From NCBI GenBank assembly GCA_964539785.1, contig CAZIJQ010000001.1, positions 118 through 64,117 of the forward strand: DNA of 64,000 nucleotides, read 5' to 3'. The notes beneath the pieces were generated by a model. The model saw nothing but the letters and a program-made list of their open reading frames with translations. It was not told the DNA's origin and ran no database searches. The position numbers and the translations under genes are program-made. This DNA is from an uncultured bacterium. GTDB lineage: Bacteria; Fidelibacterota; Marinisomatia; Marinisomatales; TCS56. Shown one piece after another: positions 12,270-20,626 of the stretch (its first letter is position 1; every line of letters begins with the position of its first letter).

Positions 12270-12345
12270 ATTCTCCCTGATATAATATTAATTATACTGA
12301 TTTACTCATTTATTGAATGGTAGCAGGATTGTTACATTTCCGGCC

Positions 12346-13647
12346 ATGAATCTTGTCGAACAGATCTATTCTGAAATCTTGTCAAATCGGCGAAAGGATC
12401 AGGAGCGTCTGGTCGGAATTGAGGTAGAGTGCCTGATTTATGATCATGAGATGAGACGAATTCCGGTAAATCCCGGGAGCAAATATTCGGCAACCGATTT
12501 GTTATCGTCTTTAAGTACCTGGCAAAGTGATAACCGGAAATGTATTCATTATTCCATCGAGCCCGGCGGCCAGGTTGAGTATGCCTCTCCGCCGATTAAA
12601 TCGCTGCACCAGGCTCATGAGCAATATTTGGAACATCTGGGGCAACTATTAAATATCTGCCAGCAGGAAAACATGATTCCGCTAGATTATGCCCTGGATC
12701 CCCTTTATGCCTCATCCGAAATTGAATTGATTGCCACTGAAAAATATCAATTGATGAATAATTTATTCGCCAGGACCGGTAAACATGGCCCCTGGATGAT
12801 GCGAAACACCGCCAGCGTCCAGGTTAATATTGATGTTACTTCTCAGCGGGATGCCGAGGAAATGGCTTTTATTGCTGATTGTCTCCAACCGTTGGTGGCA
12901 ATTCTGTTTGCTCACGCGCCGTTCAAGCTTGGCGAACCAGCCGGTCAGAATAATTTGAGATACCATATCTGGCATGACACCGATCCGGATCGCTGCGGAA
13001 ATCTTATAGATCACGGCATTACCAGCAATTCCGGTCTTCTTGAAAAATACATTAATTGGATTTTGAAGGTCCCAGTCATTTTCGCACAAGCAGGTCGGGA
13101 TACCATTAAATATGACGGAACTATGGGAAGTTGGTTGGAATCCCGCGCAAATGATGGAATAAGTTCACCGGCAGATATTCAACTGATGCTGCATCAGATT
13201 TTTTCCCATGTCAGATTCAAAAACGTTCTTGAGGTTCGAGGGGCAGACCGACCCCTTTGCAATCATGAATTTGCCCCGGCCGCCTTTTGGCTGGGGGTTC
13301 TCAGTAGTGGTGATATTCGTCGAAGAATGTTGGCGTTGGTCTCATCCTGGTCGATCGAAACACGGAAGCAATTAAATCAACTGGCCGGTAGTGTTGATGT
13401 TAAACAAAAGGCGCCGGATGGACGAATTGTTGAGGATTGGATTGGGGAAGTTTGCGATTTGGCGCGCACCGGATTGTTGGAAAGAGCACGGGTCCAAAGT
13501 ATCGCGCCGGAAACAAAGTTTCTGGATGATTATCTGAAAATATTTTTTGATCTGGGCCCACCATCGCTTTTCCTGCAGAATAAATATAGAAATTGTAATT
13601 TAGATTTAAAGGAATATTTAAAGACCTGTGCAATCGAAAGTGAATAA
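12346..13647 (+). CDS. glutamate--cysteine ligase family protein (GCS2, plant/proteobacterial type)
   Basis: Motifs GIEVE, EPGGQVEYASPP and MMRNTASVQVNID resemble GCS2 gamma-glutamylcysteine ligases. ATG at 12346 preferred over TTG at 12313. Confidence 0.7.
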   Translation: MNLVEQIYSEILSNRRKDQERLVGIEVECLIYDHEMRRIPVNPGSKYSATDLLSSLSTWQSDNRKCIHYSIEPGGQVEYASPPIKSLHQAHEQYLEHLGQLLNICQQENMIPLDYALDPLYASSEIELIATEKYQLMNNLFARTGKHGPWMMRNTASVQVNIDVTSQRDAEEMAFIADCLQPLVAILFAHAPFKLGEPAGQNNLRYHIWHDTDPDRCGNLIDHGITSNSGLLEKYINWILKVPVIFAQAGRDTIKYDGTMGSWLESRANDGISSPADIQLMLHQIFSHVRFKNVLEVRGADRPLCNHEFAPAAFWLGVLSSGDIRRRMLALVSSWSIETRKQLNQLAGSVDVKQKAPDGRIVEDWIGEVCDLARTGLLERARVQSIAPETKFLDDYLKIFFDLGPPSLFLQNKYRNCNLDLKEYLKTCAIESE

Positions 13648-14371
13648 ACCGCTGATCGGAATTAATCCTTATTATTTCTATTATAATGATGATTGGTGGA
13701 TGGCTACAAAACAGGATTACCTTACTGCCGTCTGGAGTAGTGGCGGTTTACCAATGACTGTGCACCACCAGCCGAAAGGCGAAACAGTGGAAGAAATTGT
13801 CCATCGAATCGACGGCTTGGTAATGGTCGGCGGACCGGATTTTCCCAGCAACATGTATGCTGGTCGTAATCCGGAACTGCTGAGCGAAATCATTCATCCG
13901 GCACGGGAGGTTTTCGACCGGGCAATGTTCTGGGAAGCCCGGCAGCAGGGGAAGCCAATTCTGGCAATCTGTGCCGGAATGCAGCATATTAATATTATAT
14001 ATGGTGGTTCCCTGTATGAAGATTTACCGTCTCAGAAGGAAAATTTGAATAACCATGGGGAATTCGGTGGTGACTTCGGTACCCATATTGTCGATCTTGA
14101 CATTAATAGTTGTCTGTATGATATAATGGGAGAAAAAACACCGACCGTTCGTTGTACCCACCATCAGGGAATTAGGCAGCTGGGAGAGAACTTAAATGCC
14201 GTGGCCTGGAGTGAGGATGGCTTAATCGAGGCCATCGAAGACAAGGACGAACCGCGAGCGTTTATCGCTATCCAATGGCACCCGGAATTATACCAGGAAG
14301 ATCGCGCCAACCGCCAGATTTTCGAGCGGCTCATAGAAGAAGCGGTTGGCCGATCTACAATGAATGGTTAA
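13628..14371 (+). CDS. gamma-glutamyl hydrolase / class I glutamine amidotransferase (peptidase C26, PuuD-like)
   Basis: Nucleophile elbow ILAICAGMQ, HHQGI and QWHPE motifs. Overlaps the upstream gene end by 20 nt. Confidence 0.75.
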   Translation: MQSKVNKPLIGINPYYFYYNDDWWMATKQDYLTAVWSSGGLPMTVHHQPKGETVEEIVHRIDGLVMVGGPDFPSNMYAGRNPELLSEIIHPAREVFDRAMFWEARQQGKPILAICAGMQHINIIYGGSLYEDLPSQKENLNNHGEFGGDFGTHIVDLDINSCLYDIMGEKTPTVRCTHHQGIRQLGENLNAVAWSEDGLIEAIEDKDEPRAFIAIQWHPELYQEDRANRQIFERLIEEAVGRSTMNG

Positions 14372-14414
14372 TTTAAATTTGGCGTTTAGCTGAGCACGCT
14401 TTACTAAATTATTT

Positions 14415-14448
14415 ACGGCCAGATATCCTGGAGTGCCCGGCCGTTTTT
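14415..14448 (+). terminator. candidate intrinsic terminator
   Basis: ACGGCC (14415-14420) pairs with GGCCGT (14438-14443), followed by TTTTTCTGTTTTT. Confidence 0.45.
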
Positions 14449-14465
14449 CTGTTTTTCCGGTTAAA

Positions 14466-15815
14466 TTATGAGATATCGGGCAAAACCTGCAGATTTTTCT
14501 TGATCTCCTGATCACTTGGTTCAAAGTCGGTCAGATCTCCTCCCAGATAATTGTCATAGGCTGCCATATCAAAATGACCGTGGCCGCTGAGATTAAAAAT
14601 AATCGTTTTGGAAACACCTTCAGCATCTGCTTTTTTCACTTCCGCGATCGTGGCAGCGATAGCATGGGAAGATTCCGGAGCCGGTATTATTCCCTCGGAG
14701 CGGGCAAACTGGATTGCCGCCCTGAAACTATCCTTCTGAGTATAGGACCGGGGAGTGATGAATCCCTGTTGGACCAGGGCGCTGATTTGAGGAGCCATTC
14801 CGTGGTAACGCAGTCCACCGGCATGAATTTTAGCAGGCATAAATGTGTGTCCCAGCGAGCTCATGGCCAGTAAAGGTGTCAATTGTGCCGTATCACCAAA
14901 ATCATAACCGAATTTACCGCGTGTCAAAGTTGGACAGGCCGTCGGCTCGGCAGCAATAAATTCGATTTCTTTGCCAGCAAATTTGTCCGGCAGGAAGGGA
15001 AATGCCAAGCCGGCAAAATTGCTACCACCACCGACGCAGCCCACAAGCACATCTGGCTTAATGCCTTCTTTTTCAAGCTGGATTTTAACCTCCTCGCCAA
15101 TAATGGTCTGGTGTAGCAAGACATGGTTAAGGACCGACCCCAGGGAATACTTGGTTTTTTCATCACCAGCTGCCACTTCCACGGCTTCGCTGATTGCAAT
15201 TCCCAGGCTGCCGGGTGTATTGGGATCGCGCGCCAGGATATCTCGTCCAACCTGGGTCGTGTCACTGGGACTGGGCAGAATTCTACCACCCCAGGTTTCG
15301 ATCATCGATTTCCGGAATGGTTTATTATCATAACTGACCCGAACCATGTATACCAGGCATTTTAGATCGAAATAATTACAGGCCAGACTCAGAGCGCTGC
15401 CCCATTGACCAGCTCCTGTTTCGGTCGATAACGTTTTGGTGCCTTCCAAGGCATTGTAATAAGCCTGGGGCACAGCTGTGTTGGGTTTATGGCTACCAGC
15501 GGGGCTGACAGACTCATTCTTAAAAAAGATTTTTGATTTTGTGCCCAGTAATTGTTCAAAATTATTAGCCCGCACTAATGGCGTTGGTCGCCAGACACTT
15601 AAGATATCCAGGACCGGGTCAGGGATGGGTATGTAGCGTTCGGTGCTGACCTCCTGCATGATCAACTCCATTGGAAAAAGCGGCGCCAGGTCATCCGGTC
15701 CGATTGGTTCATGCGTACCGGGGTGCAATGGTGGTAATACCGATGTAGGGATATCGGCAGTAATATTGTACCAGCTACGTGGCATTTCCTGCTCATTCAG
15801 CAGTATTTTCTTCAT
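14466..15815 (-). CDS. trpB: TrpB-like PLP-dependent enzyme (tryptophan synthase beta, TrpB2 type)
   Basis: 449 aa. The N-terminal extension [23 protein letters not shown] is typical of TrpB2. PLP lysine context [17 protein letters not shown] loop. AAGGAG Shine-Dalgarno upstream. Confidence 0.85.
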
Positions 15816-15857
15816 TATCTTACTCCTTTTGGATGTTAGTGTTTCGGTGTGTTAAGC

Positions 15858-16691
15858 TTATTCATCAAATACAAAAGTGGGCTCACGATAGAAGCGAATG
15901 GATTTGGCTCTTTTACGTCCCAGTATATTATTATTGAGCCAGATATTTTTTTCCGACAGGGTATTGTCGTCTACCAGGATATCAATTGGCATATTAAAGT
16001 GGAGCGCTCTTTTTGGTAGTTGTATCCTGGTGATACCGCTGGGCATTGTTTCACTAGAAAGCGCTATTTGTACCAATTCGGATTTTTCTATTACAGCGAA
16101 ACTGAACAATGCCGAAAAATCCCGGTAATTCTTAATCAAATCATCTAAGCGATAATAACTTACACGGTCCATTCTTCCTTGGTGGAGATAAAGCCTGGTA
16201 AGGTTGTGTAATAGGGAAATATTCTTTGGCAGAGTGGCTAATCGGGGGATGGCCAGCACCGCGCCATTTTTAAAGATAACCTCTACCAGATTTGCATTAT
16301 TATTGTTTAAGGAGACCTGCTCCCGGTAGGCAACACTCAGTGTATCAAGACATTGCCGTAATTGATCGCGGATTGATCCTTCGATGGCATGTGACCAGGC
16401 AGAAACGGTAAGCAGCGGGTCATCCAGGTTGATCATTTGGACGCAGATATGCTTTATGCCCATCTGGATCAGGGCATTGGTACGATTAGCCCCATCCAGC
16501 AGTATATACTCTCCAGCAGGTGTTTTTCCAACGATGGGAGGATTTTTCAGGAAACCGTCCTCGGTAATCTTAGTGATCAATTTTTCACTAATATTCCGGT
16601 CAGGCTGCTCATGAAATATTATGGATTCGCTGGTAACTATTTTCAGTTCTGGTAGTTGCCCGATATGTAGATTATTGGTTTTCATATTCAT
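15858..16691 (-). CDS. ParB/Srx-fold domain protein (candidate free serine kinase, SerK-like; function hypothetical)
   Basis: N-terminal ParB-like segment HEQPD..L...I...G.LKNPPIV......YILLDGANRTNAL. Start moved to ATG 16691 because the track GTG at 16715 lies inside a terminator hairpin. Lies 42 nt upstream of trpB2 on the same strand. Confidence 0.5.
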   Translation of the reverse strand: MNMKTNNLHIGQLPELKIVTSESIIFHEQPDRNISEKLITKITEDGFLKNPPIVGKTPAGEYILLDGANRTNALIQMGIKHICVQMINLDDPLLTVSAWSHAIEGSIRDQLRQCLDTLSVAYREQVSLNNNNANLVEVIFKNGAVLAIPRLATLPKNISLLHNLTRLYLHQGRMDRVSYYRLDDLIKNYRDFSALFSFAVIEKSELVQIALSSETMPSGITRIQLPKRALHFNMPIDILVDDNTLSEKNIWLNNNILGRKRAKSIRFYREPTFVFDE

Positions 16692-16698
16692 CTTTGTT

Positions 16699-16727
16699 AA
16701 AAAAAAGACCCGCACGAGGCGGGTCTT
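16699..16727 (-). terminator. intrinsic terminator in the 5' leader of the ParB-like/trpB2 operon (attenuator)
   Basis: Minus-strand RNA AAGACCCGC-CUCGU-GCGGGUCUU followed by UUUUUU. Ends 8 nt before the ATG at 16691. Confidence 0.7.
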
Positions 16728-16759
16728 CGGAAAATTTTTGATGTGGTGTAATTAACTAA

Positions 16760-16852
16760 CTATCGACAGACGGCCTCATGGGAATGCATTGGAATCTGCC
16801 ACCAATTAGCCTGGGAGCTGGAAAACACAGTTGTAATGATTACTTTATTCAT
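16760..16852 (-). CDS. candidate leader peptide with tandem Trp codons (MNKVIITTVFSSSQANWWQIPMHSHEAVCR)
   Basis: ATG 16852 to TAG 16760, hand-translated. UGG UGG at 16804-16799. The 3' end of the ORF is complementary to the terminator 5' arm. No clear Shine-Dalgarno. Confidence 0.45.
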   Translation of the reverse strand: MNKVIITTVFSSSQANWWQIPMHSHEAVCR

Positions 16853-17168
16853 CGGTCAAACTTAACGGGACGCTATTCAAATGTGCAAAGCATAAATGGT
16901 AATTATATTATTATCGTTAAATAATTGCGATCGGAGAGATTTTTCACCTCAAAGCTGGTCGTGAATTATAGTCGGGATTCAGTATCCATAAAAGTTGTTT
17001 GCCTCCGTAAATAATAGACCTGAAACTGCGAGGCCAGAGGGTGTGGTTTTATTCTCTGGTGCTAAATACAATCCATTTTATTTCGTTTTTAGTGACTTTT
17101 TCGCTGTTTATCGAGCGGGTGGTCGTTAATTTTTATTCACATTTTAGTATGTTAAAAAGGAGTTTAGA

Positions 17169-17957
17169 ATGACATCGTTGCACACCGAACTCTATCCGGA
17201 TGCCGTATCACGGCACGGAAAAACCAGCGAAGCCCACCGTATTGCCCGAAAAGCCCTCCGTGATGAATTGATCAGTGGACTCACTGGTGCAATACTGGCG
17301 GCTTTTATCTGGTTTCACTTGCTGTTTGAAAGCTCGATTCTGTTTGGCAGGGCTGCCTATGATAAACTGGCACTGCTGCTGGAGCACCCGCTGCCCATAG
17401 CCCATGTGGCGGTAATCGGGATTGGAGTAGTATTTTTTATTCATTTTATTTGGGCATCACGCAAAATTCCCGGCAAACTGCAGGAACGTAAAAAAATGAT
17501 GGAATTGGGGATAAGCATTAAAAAAGCCAATAATCGTTGGCAGCAGGACACCAAATCGGATATTCGATTGCGCAAGCATTTTGAGACATCACTGTGGATC
17601 TGGCAGGTCCGCACTGGAATGATAGTTCTGGCGGCAGGTGCTTTTCATCTGGTACTGGTTGCCTGGAATATTTTCACCGACATGGGAATCGAAGGACAGA
17701 CGCCGGGCATTTCGGCCGAGATCGCCGTTTCCCGCGTCGAAAGCGGTCTGTGGATCCTCTATCTGGTCTTGATGATAGCCGTTGTTGTGCATATGTCTGT
17801 CGGTGTTTACCGGTTGCTGGTCAAATGGTTTGCCGATACCTGGTTTATACGAAAATACGCCAGAATTATTTTCTACTTCTTGCTATGGTTCTTCATTATT
17901 GTTGGCGCCGCCACCACACTTGGATTGGCCGGTCCCTGGGAAGGAGTGCTGTCATGA
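17169..17957 (+). CDS. sdhC: succinate dehydrogenase/fumarate reductase cytochrome b subunit (5-TM, Wolinella/Bacillus b558 type)
   Basis: 262-aa polytopic protein directly upstream of the flavoprotein subunit, with an ATGA overlap. AAGGAG Shine-Dalgarno. Gene order is C-A-B. Confidence 0.75.
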   Translation: MTSLHTELYPDAVSRHGKTSEAHRIARKALRDELISGLTGAILAAFIWFHLLFESSILFGRAAYDKLALLLEHPLPIAHVAVIGIGVVFFIHFIWASRKIPGKLQERKKMMELGISIKKANNRWQQDTKSDIRLRKHFETSLWIWQVRTGMIVLAAGAFHLVLVAWNIFTDMGIEGQTPGISAEIAVSRVESGLWILYLVLMIAVVVHMSVGVYRLLVKWFADTWFIRKYARIIFYFLLWFFIIVGAATTLGLAGPWEGVLS

Positions 17958-19897
17958 GAATTATTAACAGCGATGTACTGGTAATTGGTGCTGGACTGGC
18001 TGGCGAACGGACGGCAATTGCCTGTGCCAAACGTGGCCTGGATGTAACAATATTATCACTGGTTCCGCCCCGCCGCAGCCATTCCTCGGCCGCTCAGGGC
18101 GGTATGCAGGCTTCTCTGGCTAATACTACAATGGGTAAGGGCGACAACCCTACTATTCATTGGCTCGATACGGTTAAGGGTTCAGATTGGGGCTGTGACC
18201 AGGAAGTTGCCCGCATTTTCGCCGATAACGCCCCCATCGCCATGCGCGAGATGGCTCATTTCGGCGTACCCTGGAATCGAGTAAAAGGCGGTAAACAGCA
18301 AGTATTTATTAAGGGTAAAAAAGCCGAGATCGAAGAAGATTTTGCTAACGAAGGGTTAATCACCTCTCGAGCGTTCGGCGGTACTGCTAAATGGCGGACT
18401 TGCTACACAGCCGATGGTACCGGACACACGGTACTGTACACCATGGATAATATGGTTCTGCAGCTCGGTATTTCAGTCCATGATCGGATGGAAGCGATTC
18501 GACTGATCCAAAAGGATAACCGTTGTGTGGGCGCCATTGTGCGCTCCCTGCGGGACGGTGAAATTCTGGCCTACATGGCCAAAGCTACCGTGATTGCTAC
18601 CGGTGGTTACGGCCGCATCTATGGTGAATCCACCAATGCCGTTATCAACGAAGGTACCGGTTCCTGGCTGGCTCTCCAGACCGGCGTGGTTCCCTTGGGC
18701 AACATGGAGGCGGTTCAAGTCCATCCAACCGGTATTGTGCCCACCGACATTCTGGTAACCGAAGGTTGCCGCGGTGACGGTGGTTTATTGTTGGATGTGG
18801 ATGAATACCGTTTCATGCCCGACTACGAACCGGAAAAAATGGAACTCGCTTCCCGGGACGTGGTGTCGCGCCGGATGAAAGAGCACATGTTAAAAGGCAA
18901 AGGCGTTCAGTCCGATTATGGGGAACATCTGTGGTTGGACCTGCGCCATCTTGGTGAACACCATCTCACAACCAAACTCCGGGAAGTCTATGATATCTGT
19001 ATGTATTTCATCGGCGTAAATCCAATTACCGAATTGGTGCCGGTGCGGCCGACCCAGCACTATTCCATGGGTGGTATCCGTGTCAATAAGGATGGGCATG
19101 CCTACAACATGGAAGGACTGTTCGCCCTTGGCGAAGTAGCCTGCTGGGATATGCATGGTTTCAACCGTTTAGGTGGAAATTCACTGGCTGAGACGGTAGT
19201 TGCCGGTATGGTGGTTGGAAAACAGGTCGCTGCCTATGCTAAAAAAGCAGAATTGAATGTTGAAGTTACATTGGCAGAAGAAGCCGCCGCCCTAGAACGG
19301 AAAAAAATGGATCGATTAATGAACGGTGAAGGCGAAGAGAATGTTTACCAACTGCGGGATGAAATTGGACGCATTCTGACCAAATATGTTCACATATTCC
19401 GTACCGGCGAAGGTCTCCAAACTGCCGTAAATGAATTAAAGGTAATAGTGGATCGCACGAAAAATGTAAAAGTGCGCACATCAGCACCGGGAATGAATCC
19501 GGAATTATCGATTGCCCTGCGGATCGAAGGTATGGCCAAGCAGGCCTACGTGATTGCCAAAGGTGCCCTGGACCGGACCGAATCCCGCGGTGCCCATTCC
19601 CGCGAAGATTACCCGGCCCGCGATGATAAAAACTGGCTGAACCGTACTCTGGTACGCTGGGTGGAAGGCGAGGCTGATCCGGTTTTCGATTATGAACCGG
19701 TGGGCTTACTTGACCTGCCTCCTGGCGACCGTGGCTATGGTGGCGGTCAGATGATCGATATGGACATAACGGTGGATGAATATAACAAACAGGTTGATCC
19801 GGGACAGATCACCAATGGGCGTTTGCAACCGGCTGAACCGACAGGAAAGAAATTACCGAAAGAGGCCTGGCGGGCCGAATTGAAAGGAAAGGAGTAG
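17954..19897 (+). CDS. sdhA: succinate dehydrogenase/fumarate reductase flavoprotein subunit
   Basis: N-terminal FAD fold DVLVIGAGLAGERTAI, SHSSAAQGG (covalent FAD His), HPTG, RGAHSREDYP. True start is ATG 17954 after a GGAAGGAG Shine-Dalgarno. The track start at 17594 is an out-of-context extension overlapping sdhC. Confidence 0.95.
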   Translation: MRIINSDVLVIGAGLAGERTAIACAKRGLDVTILSLVPPRRSHSSAAQGGMQASLANTTMGKGDNPTIHWLDTVKGSDWGCDQEVARIFADNAPIAMREMAHFGVPWNRVKGGKQQVFIKGKKAEIEEDFANEGLITSRAFGGTAKWRTCYTADGTGHTVLYTMDNMVLQLGISVHDRMEAIRLIQKDNRCVGAIVRSLRDGEILAYMAKATVIATGGYGRIYGESTNAVINEGTGSWLALQTGVVPLGNMEAVQVHPTGIVPTDILVTEGCRGDGGLLLDVDEYRFMPDYEPEKMELASRDVVSRRMKEHMLKGKGVQSDYGEHLWLDLRHLGEHHLTTKLREVYDICMYFIGVNPITELVPVRPTQHYSMGGIRVNKDGHAYNMEGLFALGEVACWDMHGFNRLGGNSLAETVVAGMVVGKQVAAYAKKAELNVEVTLAEEAAALERKKMDRLMNGEGEENVYQLRDEIGRILTKYVHIFRTGEGLQTAVNELKVIVDRTKNVKVRTSAPGMNPELSIALRIEGMAKQAYVIAKGALDRTESRGAHSREDYPARDDKNWLNRTLVRWVEGEADPVFDYEPVGLLDLPPGDRGYGGGQMIDMDITVDEYNKQVDPGQITNGRLQPAEPTGKKLPKEAWRAELKGKE

Positions 19898-19900
19898 GCA

Positions 19901-20626
19901 ATGGGACGGACATTAACTTTCAAAATCTTCCGGTATAATCCTACCAAATTGAATGATAAACCCCACATGGAAGCTTATTGGTTGGAAGAAATTCCGCGCT
20001 TGAATGTATTTACCGCATTGAATATGATCCGCGAGCAACAGGCTCCCGACCTGATGTTTGATTTCGTCTGCCGGGCTGGTATTTGCGGTTCCTGCGCCAT
20101 GGTGATCAACGGCCGACCGACTCTGGCTTGCCGCACACTGACTGCCGATCTACCAGAAACGATTGAACTGTTCCCATTGCCGTTTTTCAAGCTGTTGGGC
20201 GATCTTTCGGTCGATACTGGTGTCTGGTTCCGTGAAATGGGGGAGCGACTGGAATCCTGGGTGCATAACCATAAGGAATTTGATCCGCAGGCAATTGAAG
20301 AGCGGATGGACAATGAAACAGCGATAAAAATCTATAACTCGGAACGCTGTATCGAATGTGGTTGCTGCATCGCTGGTTGTGCCACTGCTCAGGTTTATCC
20401 CGATTTCATCGGTGCCGCCGGACTGAACCGGATCGGTCGCTTCCTGTTTGACCCCAGGGATGAACGGGGCGACCAAGAATGGTTTGAATTGGTATCTACC
20501 GATGAGGGAATTTTCGGTTGTATCGGTATGATGGCCTGTGATGATGTGTGTCCCAAAGATCTGCCCTTACTGGAGGTTTTTGCTTACATTCGCCGTAAGG
20601 TCAGCGGGATTGCCATTAAAAAATAG
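19901..20626 (+). CDS. sdhB: succinate dehydrogenase/fumarate reductase iron-sulfur subunit
   Basis: Cys clusters CRAGICGSCAM..C, CIECGCCIAGC and CIGMMACDDVCPK. Confidence 0.95.
   Translation: MGRTLTFKIFRYNPTKLNDKPHMEAYWLEEIPRLNVFTALNMIREQQAPDLMFDFVCRAGICGSCAMVINGRPTLACRTLTADLPETIELFPLPFFKLLGDLSVDTGVWFREMGERLESWVHNHKEFDPQAIEERMDNETAIKIYNSERCIECGCCIAGCATAQVYPDFIGAAGLNRIGRFLFDPRDERGDQEWFELVSTDEGIFGCIGMMACDDVCPKDLPLLEVFAYIRRKVSGIAIKK

Follow-up and report, generated by a model that had tools for sequence, protein, structure and literature searches.

A probable tryptophan-codon-sensing transcription attenuator in front of a serine kinase-like/trpB2 operon of Marinimicrobia

The DNA analysed here is a stretch of 64,000 nucleotides (nt) from an uncultured bacterium (contig CAZIJQ010000001.1, positions 118 to 64,117), which we call the window. 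On its minus strand, the region between positions 16852 and 16699 precedes an operon made of a ParB-like, kinase-related gene and trpB2. A preliminary description of the window, made from its letters alone, had proposed that classical trp attenuation is attached to this trpB2 operon, and our results support the proposal: conservation, alternative folds, compensatory changes and the identity of TrpB2, that is, all predictions that can be computed, hold. We consider it very likely that the element is a ribosome-mediated transcription attenuator of the kinase-like/trpB2 operon in Marinimicrobia (Marinisomatota), with the Trp codons of a leader peptide sensing charged tRNA-Trp. This reading is built on sequence elements, on alternative folds with their energies, on conservation and on covariation, all of which are observed.

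A short open reading frame (ORF) with a run of Trp codons is expected of an attenuator, and the window has one of 30 codons with UGG UGG. Both the ORF and its tandem Trp codons lie where they had been described previously (Table 1). When both strands of the 64-kb window are searched for a short ATG ORF that has at least two neighbouring Trp codons and precedes a strong hairpin with T6, a single site is found, 16852–16699. It is important to note that TGGTGG occurs 42 times per strand and is not rare by itself, so the significance of the site rests on the combination of features and on their conservation in relatives. Taken as a single sequence, the leader of the window suggests an attenuator and is not decisive. 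Comparison of the region with E. coli genomes by megablast gave no match, so the sequence is not enterobacterial.

Between the leader ORF and the first structural gene lies an intrinsic terminator, as is usual for attenuators. Its hairpin, GAAGACCCGC-CUCGU-GCGGGUCUUU (16728–16704), has 10 pairs, six of them G–C, and an energy of −16.5 kcal/mol. It begins 31 nt past the leader stop, and the U run ends 8 nt 5′ of ATG 16691. The canonical terminator that had been described about 30 nt after the leader stop and 8 nt before the ParB-like ATG is thus borne out, the U tract being U8. The 5′ part of this terminator can pair with an upstream strand, segment 2, to form an antiterminator helix of 15 bp (16780–16764 with 16729–16713). 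A pairing of 16777–16768 with 16726–16716 had been noticed before. It does exist, as the core of the longer helix rather than its full extent. The downstream strand, segment 3, reaches from 1 nt upstream of the terminator through the complete 5′ arm and the loop to the first base of the 3′ arm, and the antiterminator excludes the terminator by using its 5′ arm. The antiterminator duplex has an energy of −20.1 kcal/mol as compared to −7.1 for dinucleotide shuffles of the upstream strand (z = −6.1, reached by 0 of 200 shuffles). Complementarity of this extent is unlikely to be due to chance.

A third helix, the 1:2 hairpin or anti-antiterminator, holds the Trp codons in its 5′ arm and the antiterminator 5′ strand together with the stop codon in its 3′ arm. 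Alone it has an energy of −19.2 kcal/mol, and it is part of both the minimum-energy and the centroid fold. Folded as naked RNA, 16812–16699 adopts the 1:2 hairpin together with the 3:4 helix, i.e. the terminator, at −35.7 kcal/mol (z = −3.7, none of 200 shuffles being as good). Pairing of segment 1 with segment 2 in ribosome-free RNA, another property of attenuators, is therefore present in the window; among the relatives it is inconsistent. The fold changes when the 5′ part is masked. More specifically, when the free RNA begins at 16788, 16785 or 16782, the antiterminator is the fold of minimum energy with −20.2 to −20.5 kcal/mol, as compared to −16.5 for the terminator alone in the same transcripts taken through the U tract. 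With a ribosome placed at the leader stop codon, the terminator forms. The geometry also suits an attenuator: segment 2 starts 19 nt past the last Trp base and ends 1 nt before UAG, and a ribosome covers about 12–15 nt on either side. Folding of the masked states thus agrees with the earlier expectation that a ribosome stalled at the Trp codons leads to the antiterminator and a ribosome at the stop codon to the terminator. A comparison of the energies of the two structures had been suggested as a check, and it favours the antiterminator once the RNA of the stalled-ribosome state is masked.

The ParB-like protein of the window shares 83% identity with a protein from a 'Candidatus Marinimicrobia / Neomarinimicrobiota' metagenome-assembled genome. 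Exact-protein look-ups of contigs encoding homologues yielded 12 further distinct leaders (L001, L002, L006, L007, L097, L098, L100, L102, L103, L105, L106 and L108), whose downstream proteins are 48–93% (ParB-like) and 67–99% (TrpB2) identical to those of the window. A metagenome scan for close relatives gave nine distant loci of 31–38% identity, which were of no use for the clade of the window. All 12 relatives have an ORF of 29–31 codons, a W run of two to four residues and a terminator, the latter located 29–34 nt past the stop in those leaders that were measured. The W run starts at codon 17–18 in the nine leaders extracted; L103, L105, L106 and L108, counted by eye, also fit. Residues before the W run vary freely, and the conserved C-terminal residues coincide with RNA segment 2. 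The preliminary description had suggested a search of relatives for conserved WW leader ORFs and held that relatives with the hairpin but without the ORF or the Trp codons would speak against attenuation. The WW leader ORF is kept in all 12 leaders recovered from the Marinimicrobia lineage, and no relative of the latter kind is seen among them. In the Neomarinimicrobiota loci L098–L107, where trpB2 is not preceded by a ParB-like gene, the leader is located directly upstream of trpB2 itself, which indicates that the element follows trpB2 and not the ParB-like gene.

Compensatory changes can be read directly in the Marinimicrobia leaders. GAGGC:GCCUC of the window antiterminator is GGGGC:GCCCC in L007, and the terminator pair G16725–C16707 of the window is A–U in L007. 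A MAFFT alignment of eight Marinimicrobia leaders (A3) was inconsistent in the terminator loop and in segment 2, and for this reason duplex z-scores of single sequences and direct reading were used instead of covariation statistics on A3. As for the Trp codons themselves, UGG UGG UGG of the closest relatives, L108 and L001 (TrpB2 98–99% identical), corresponds to UGG UGG CAG in the window. The third Trp codon of the window leader was lost through two base changes. This loss might lower the sensitivity of the switch in the window strain.

The element is also found outside the Marinimicrobia. We surveyed 80 loci encoding relatives of the ParB-like protein, taking one genome per species. In 47 usable loci the ParB-like gene is directly followed by trpB2; their hosts belong to Marinimicrobia, Ignavibacteria, Zixibacteria, Gemmatimonadota, Calditrichota, 'Cytophagia', Chlorobi, Eisenibacteria, Acidimicrobiia and Comamonadaceae. 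The loci were screened automatically for an in-frame W run of at least two residues, a stop within 9–60 nt and a hairpin with T5 within 15–60 nt. This screen was passed by 25 of the 47 linked loci as compared to 1 of 31 loci with no downstream trpB2 detected (Fisher p = 1.6e-6), a contrast that is confounded by taxonomy, the unlinked loci being mostly Chloroflexota, Acidobacteriota and Betaproteobacteria. The linked loci that passed include Gemmatimonadota, a Zixibacteria locus, Ignavibacteria, 'Cytophagia', Eisenibacteria and Acidimicrobiia. In the sole unlinked locus that passed, L044, the contig ends before trpB2 could appear. By eye, three further linked loci (L013, L031 and L038) show the element. 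Leaders of the Gemmatimonadota type follow the pattern UGGUGGUGG(UGG)-CGCUCG...CGAGCAGCGGGAGG...CUUCCCGCUGCAG-loop-CUGCAGCGG-U7, in which segment 2 nearly repeats segment 4, each being complementary to segment 3.

Covariation was tested in this wider set, on an alignment of 21 sequences (A4). The 2:3 helix is 87.9% paired in A4, as compared to 36–62% when the partner strand is slid. Compensatory changes are present in 5 of its 11 pairs, e.g. C–G, U–A and U–G at one position, and its covariation score was reached by none of 500 shuffles. The terminator has five compensatory pairs in A4. RNAalifold recovers the terminator from the alignment; the 1:2 helix, which is in different registers in different sequences, is missed. 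For the antiterminator duplex, the z-scores of 32 loci average −3.1. Covarying stems upstream of trpB2, which had been named as a further check, are thus found for both antiterminator and terminator in the wider set, next to the changes read directly in L007.

Some of the surveyed loci have other sequences in front of the genes. Two pairs of loci, from Ignavibacteria and Zixibacteria, carry the gene pair without a W-run leader and have upstream stretches conserved within each pair. L009 (about 2250–2500) and L011 (about 2250–2500) share ...CAATAAT..CCCGCCGATAA...CGTCCGTATTTA...GGCCCGCCG...AAATAACCGAGGAAT, and L027 (about 1000–1235) and L034 (about 200–420) share GGGGCTGA.T.TTCCGATACCTA. These stretches may be a different regulatory RNA. 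The Betaproteobacterial loci L049 and L056 (Comamonadaceae-type) have no Trp-run attenuator. Both carry a small ORF (MRLSYTEYWMPSRPS...) in the region about 20–110 nt upstream of the ParB-like gene, with its end 21 nt ahead of this gene.

The weak point of the attenuator had been seen in the lack of a clear Shine-Dalgarno sequence or promoter for the leader. The Shine-Dalgarno sequence is indeed absent: none was found before the leader ORF on reading the sequence. For the promoter the picture is different, as a conserved promoter-like element is present, placed such that the mRNA would be nearly leaderless. The arrangement is found in all eight Marinimicrobia-lineage leaders compared (the window, L001, L002, L006, L007, L098, L100 and L102) and consists of TTGCAn (TTGTTT in L007), a spacer of 17–18 nt, TAAGTT, TAAATT or TAAATA, and the ATG 6–10 nt later. 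The −10 region of the window also reads TAAGTTTG (16864–16857), matching the Bacteroidota-style TAnnTTTG, and the same is true for L001 and L002. A consensus promoter scan gave no promoter for the leader; TTGCAC matches three of six positions and the rule of the scan was four of six. We infer that TTGCAC-N18-TAAGTT acts as the leader promoter. Judged by the usual spacing between a −10 element and the 5′ end of the RNA, transcription probably starts at or within a few nucleotides of the leader AUG, giving a leaderless or near-leaderless mRNA, and such an mRNA would explain why a Shine-Dalgarno sequence is absent. Moreover, a Shine-Dalgarno-like motif is present at 14 of 47 crude gene starts in the window, so its lack at the leader is not unusual in this genome.

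Combining these observations, regulation could proceed in the following way. Transcription would begin from TTGCAC-N18-TAAGTT at or close to the leader AUG, and the leader would be translated without a Shine-Dalgarno sequence. With Trp-tRNA in good supply, the ribosome would pass UGG UGG, reach the UAG at 16762–16760 and cover segment 2 (16780–16764); alternatively, it would be released and the 1:2 hairpin would re-form. In both cases segment 3 would be left to pair with segment 4, the terminator would form, and the transcript would end in the U8 tract with a length of about 154 nt. When Trp-tRNA is scarce, the ribosome would stall on 16804–16799 and mask segment 1. Segment 2 would stay free to pair with 16729–16713, no terminator would form, and RNA polymerase would read into the operon. 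Our predictions from sequence comprise the site at which transcription starts, the kinetics of the switch, its response to Trp, the translation of the leader peptide and the activities of both enzymes.

Several observations weigh against this reading or weaken it. Masking no more than the 28-nt footprint of the ribosome, with the 5′ leader kept free, gives an equilibrium fold that retains the terminator in the window, L002 and L006; the antiterminator forms in L001 and L007. The 5′ half of the window leader ORF, left free, can pair with segment 2. Read-through would then hinge on kinetics or on trailing ribosomes, and, as the mixed results show, different assumptions on the 5′ part of the leader lead to different equilibrium outcomes. 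In the case of E. coli trpL, a kinetic decision is generally accepted. The window leader has only two Trp codons, whereas most relatives have three or four. The Rfam model RF00513 (Trp_leader) scores the window leader at 25.5 bits (E = 0.064), and it matches exactly on the leader in four relatives with 26.1–27.9 bits; the gathering threshold is 41, so the window leader is not a member of this family. The 1:2 hairpin is not kept in every relative and is missing in L007. The antiterminator z-score is weak in L006 (−1.5), L102 (−1.1) and L035 (+0.1). A loop change in L006 costs one antiterminator pair, and in L108 a U-to-A change in the terminator loop breaks one antiterminator pair and is uncompensated. 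The covariation statistics come from the wider family and not from the small clade of the window itself. Finally, for the promoter and the leaderless start the evidence is conservation.

Other explanations can be considered. A promoter-like element, an ORF and a strong terminator about 154 nt further on would yield a discrete short RNA, and the whole could be an independent small gene, encoding a small protein or an sRNA of about 154 nt, in which neither the Trp codons nor the alternative pairing control the operon. Terminated trp leader RNAs act in trans in some bacteria, as rnTrpL does in Sinorhizobium and E. coli, and a trans role of this kind could co-exist with attenuation. As the sole function, however, an independent gene is very unlikely. 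There is no separate promoter evident between the terminator and the ParB-like gene, which starts 8–14 nt past the U tract, and conservation of the peptide is limited to the W run and the stretch of segment 2. The element precedes trpB2 in differing gene arrangements and phyla, and the antiterminator complementarity is far above chance and covaries. It is still more difficult to reconcile the observations with a leader ORF that mainly boosts or couples downstream translation by re-initiation and has no part in the control of transcription. It has been proposed that leader genes raise translation in this way when they lie close to structural genes, with a peak at a distance of 10–14 nt (PMC4833913). 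The leader stop of the window is 68 nt before the first ATG, with a strong terminator between them, and the Trp run and the alternative helices would be left unexplained. We regard this possibility as extremely unlikely.

Since translation of the leader ORF is only predicted and no Shine-Dalgarno sequence precedes it, the ORF could also be incidental, with the terminator/antiterminator switch operated by a sensor other than the ribosome, such as a TRAP-like protein, uncharged tRNA in a T-box-like manner or a riboswitch. TRAP-type sensing was rejected, as only three (G/U)AG triplets are seen by eye in the 3′ part of the leader, compared to the roughly 11 repeats of a TRAP site. T-box-type sensing was rejected as well: Rfam gave no match to the T-box or another riboswitch family in 14000–20000 at E ≤ 1. 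In addition, the start, the length of the ORF, the position of the W run and the stop beside segment 2 are kept in frame across very divergent sequences, as expected of a translated sensor, and about 70% of the crude gene starts in the window likewise have no Shine-Dalgarno-like motif. A non-ribosome sensor is therefore quite unlikely, and sensing of Trp codons by a translating ribosome remains the explanation that we prefer.

The gene directly downstream had been called ParB-like. The ParB/Srx fold is retained, and comparison of a profile with PDB refines the assignment to a homologue of SbnI/SerK-type serine kinases. More specifically, a profile of 30 homologues (A1) matches SbnI (5uje) with E = 1.6e-23 over residues 17–257 and SerK (5x0b) with E = 1.4e-6, and the window protein aligns with Staphylococcus SbnI over the full length. 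A Pfam search with the protein gave no match. Its NCBIfam scores, 66.8 bits for SbnI (cut-off 350) and 34.5 bits for SerK (cut-off 380), are far below the equivalog cut-offs, which places the protein in a separate subfamily. Two residues, the HE-motif Glu and the DGxxR-motif Asp, do not vary in A1; they align with E20 and D58 of SbnI, which we take to be catalytic. The gene start has no Shine-Dalgarno-like motif. The first ATG is replaced by AAG in L002; the second ATG, at 16685, may thus be the conserved start.

The second gene had been named trpB2, and this is confirmed by NF009057, on which it scores 704 bits, and by TIGR01415, with 625 bits; both values exceed the curated cut-offs, 366 and 519, respectively. 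Through TrpB2, the operon belongs to the metabolism of the amino acid whose codons would regulate it, as expected of an attenuator. No terminator is present in the 42-nt gap between the two structural genes, which contains a Shine-Dalgarno-like AAGGAG. Free serine is the substrate phosphorylated by SbnI and SerK (PMC12704722; PMC5120207), and the putative kinase encoded by the first gene probably makes O-phospho-L-serine. TrpB2 enzymes prefer O-phospho-L-serine and bind indole tightly, according to a passage in PMC11917138 that cites Busch et al. 2014 and Hettwer & Sterner 2002; by analogy, TrpB2 of the window probably condenses O-phosphoserine and indole to tryptophan. Given this use of O-phosphoserine in the TrpB2 family, the operon is probably a module leading from serine via O-phosphoserine to tryptophan, and such a route would fit induction by shortage of Trp. 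An SbnI/SerK-like ParB-fold gene followed by trpB2 is a conserved pair, present in about 47 loci of at least 10 lineages. Judged from sequence, the pair looks like a dedicated two-enzyme module.

The mechanism itself is textbook knowledge; the lineage and the gene pair are new for it. The element resembles the leader of E. coli and other enterobacteria, trpL (RF00513), in its short ORF, in the tandem UGG within segment 1, in the stop beside segment 2, in the mutually exclusive 1:2, 2:3 and 3:4 helices and in the G+C-rich terminator with a U8 tract. The RF00513 matches, which are below the threshold yet consistently placed on the leader in the window and four relatives (25.5–27.9 bits), also speak for the attenuator reading. 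It differs in that the peptide has 30 codons instead of 14, in that the leader is probably leaderless or nearly so and has no Shine-Dalgarno sequence, in the genes controlled (the serine-kinase-like/trpB2 pair instead of trpEDCBA) and in the host, which belongs to the FCB group and is not a proteobacterium. Classical trp attenuators have also been predicted in Actinobacteria, for the trp operons of Corynebacterium and Streptomyces and for trpS, with double or triple UGG leaders, G+C-rich poly-U terminators and conserved complementary triples in antiterminator and terminator (PMC1262725). The complementary-triple relation recurs in alignment A4, although phyla, sequences and regulated genes are different. 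It should be noted that 'trpB2' of PMC1262725 is the second trpB copy in the trpB2A operon of C. diphtheriae and not the kinase-paired TrpB2 family. The layout of the operon is analogous to SbnI–SbnA of staphyloferrin B synthesis and to archaeal SerK: a ParB/Srx-fold serine kinase is encoded beside a fold-type-II PLP enzyme, and in SbnI–SbnA the kinase product, O-phospho-L-serine, feeds the adjacent PLP enzyme. In the window the partner is TrpB2 instead of SbnA or a cysteine synthase, and the kinase is predicted from its sequence. Likewise, membership of the second gene in the TrpB2 family is given by the two cut-offs mentioned above, and its substrate preference is predicted from the family. 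In the literature, our coverage of which was incomplete, we found no paper that links TrpB2 with a serine kinase, describes an attenuator before this gene pair or reports regulation of TrpB2 by a Trp attenuator.

Table 1. Features of the leader region and the operon in the window, and leader peptides of the relatives.
Feature	Position	Strand	Description
−35-like hexamer	16888–16883	minus	TTGCAC; TTGCAn at the equivalent place in 7/8 Marinimicrobia leaders
−10-like hexamer	16864–16859	minus	TAAGTT; 18-nt spacer after TTGCAC; leader ATG 6 nt downstream
Leader peptide ORF	16852–16760	minus	ATG 16852, TAG 16762–16760; 30 codons + stop, encodes MNKVIITTVFSSSQANWWQIPMHSHEAVCR
Tandem Trp codons, putatively regulatory	16804–16799	minus	UGG UGG in the leader ORF; WW, WWW or WWWW at the equivalent place in relatives
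1:2 hairpin (anti-antiterminator)	16811–16754	minus	5′ arm 16811–16794, 3′ arm 16780–16754
Antiterminator 5′ strand (segment 2)	16780–16764	minus	CAUGAGGC-C-GUCU-G-UCG; ends 1 nt before the UAG stop
Antiterminator 3′ strand (segment 3)	16729–16713	minus	CGAAGAC-CC-GCCUCGUG
Intrinsic terminator	16728–16699	minus	Stem 16728–16719 with 16713–16704, loop CUCGU, U8 16706–16699
First structural gene	16691–15858	minus	277 amino acids; ParB/Srx-fold, SbnI/SerK-type free serine kinase homologue
Second structural gene, TrpB2	15815–14466	minus	449 amino acids; TrpB-like PLP enzyme
L001 leader peptide			MNKVIITTESYSYQANWWWLPTNSHEAVCR
L108 leader peptide			MNKVIITTEIYSSQANWWWLPTNSHEAVCR
L002 leader peptide			MNKVIISIAISNTSSNWWWLPAQFHEAVCR
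L006 leader peptide			MNKDVIFVRNSSCPLSSWWWPQAYTHEAVCE
L007 leader peptide			MISVINKTSESLNSTNWWWRNYPSMGLGTRR
L097 leader peptide			As L007 except for one residue
L098 leader peptide			MNDLSFIRPALQATANWWWWQFNLRAVTC
L100 leader peptide			MKSLSIIKTVLQNTQNWWWWQIYVGAVTC
L102 leader peptide			MSDLSIIKTVPQNTQNWWWWQINVGAVTC
L106 leader peptide			MSNLGIIKTAWQNTQNWWWWQINVGAVTC
L103 leader peptide			MSHNCGTSKTKNFTNGWWKGLITGAVTTV
L105 leader peptide			MIRFTYKSNFAVKTNTSWWWALSLKWVDTIE

In the neighbourhood of the operon, a GCS2-family glutamate-cysteine ligase-like gene and a peptidase C26/GATase gene (12313–14371, plus strand) converge on the end of trpB2. L004 and L006 carry the same pair at this place, so the neighbourhood is conserved within the lineage. 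On the other side, at 17169–20626 on the plus strand, divergent succinate dehydrogenase/fumarate reductase genes encode a cytochrome b-like subunit, a flavoprotein and an Fe–S subunit. The 767-amino-acid ORF from GTG 17594 overlaps the first of these genes by 364 nt, and its real start is therefore probably further downstream; in L002, the flavoprotein gene overlaps the membrane-subunit gene by only 4 nt. Just downstream of trpB2 in L102 (3885–3946, plus strand), Rfam gives 'Termite-leu' with 25.7 bits against a threshold of 51, which is probably a chance match.

To our knowledge, leader-peptide attenuation has been tested experimentally only in a few cultured groups. Our results extend it, with comparative support, to uncultured Marinimicrobia and to several other phyla of the FCB group. 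Taking the observations together, we lean, with some reservation, towards a broader reading as a whole: an undescribed and widespread set of Trp attenuators would control TrpB2, usually together with an SbnI/SerK-like kinase, in Marinimicrobia, Gemmatimonadota, Zixibacteria, Ignavibacteria, other FCB-group lineages and an Acidimicrobiia locus; TrpB2 would be part of a starvation-induced O-phosphoserine route; and the sensor of Marinimicrobia would be leaderless or nearly so. If the probable leaderless start of the sensor peptide is confirmed, it would be uncommon among attenuators. The cellular role of TrpB2 has so far been unclear. A Trp-sensing attenuator in front of its gene would mean that the enzyme is deployed when tryptophan is scarce, and the neighbouring conserved SbnI/SerK-type kinase would supply the O-phosphoserine, making a complete two-enzyme route.

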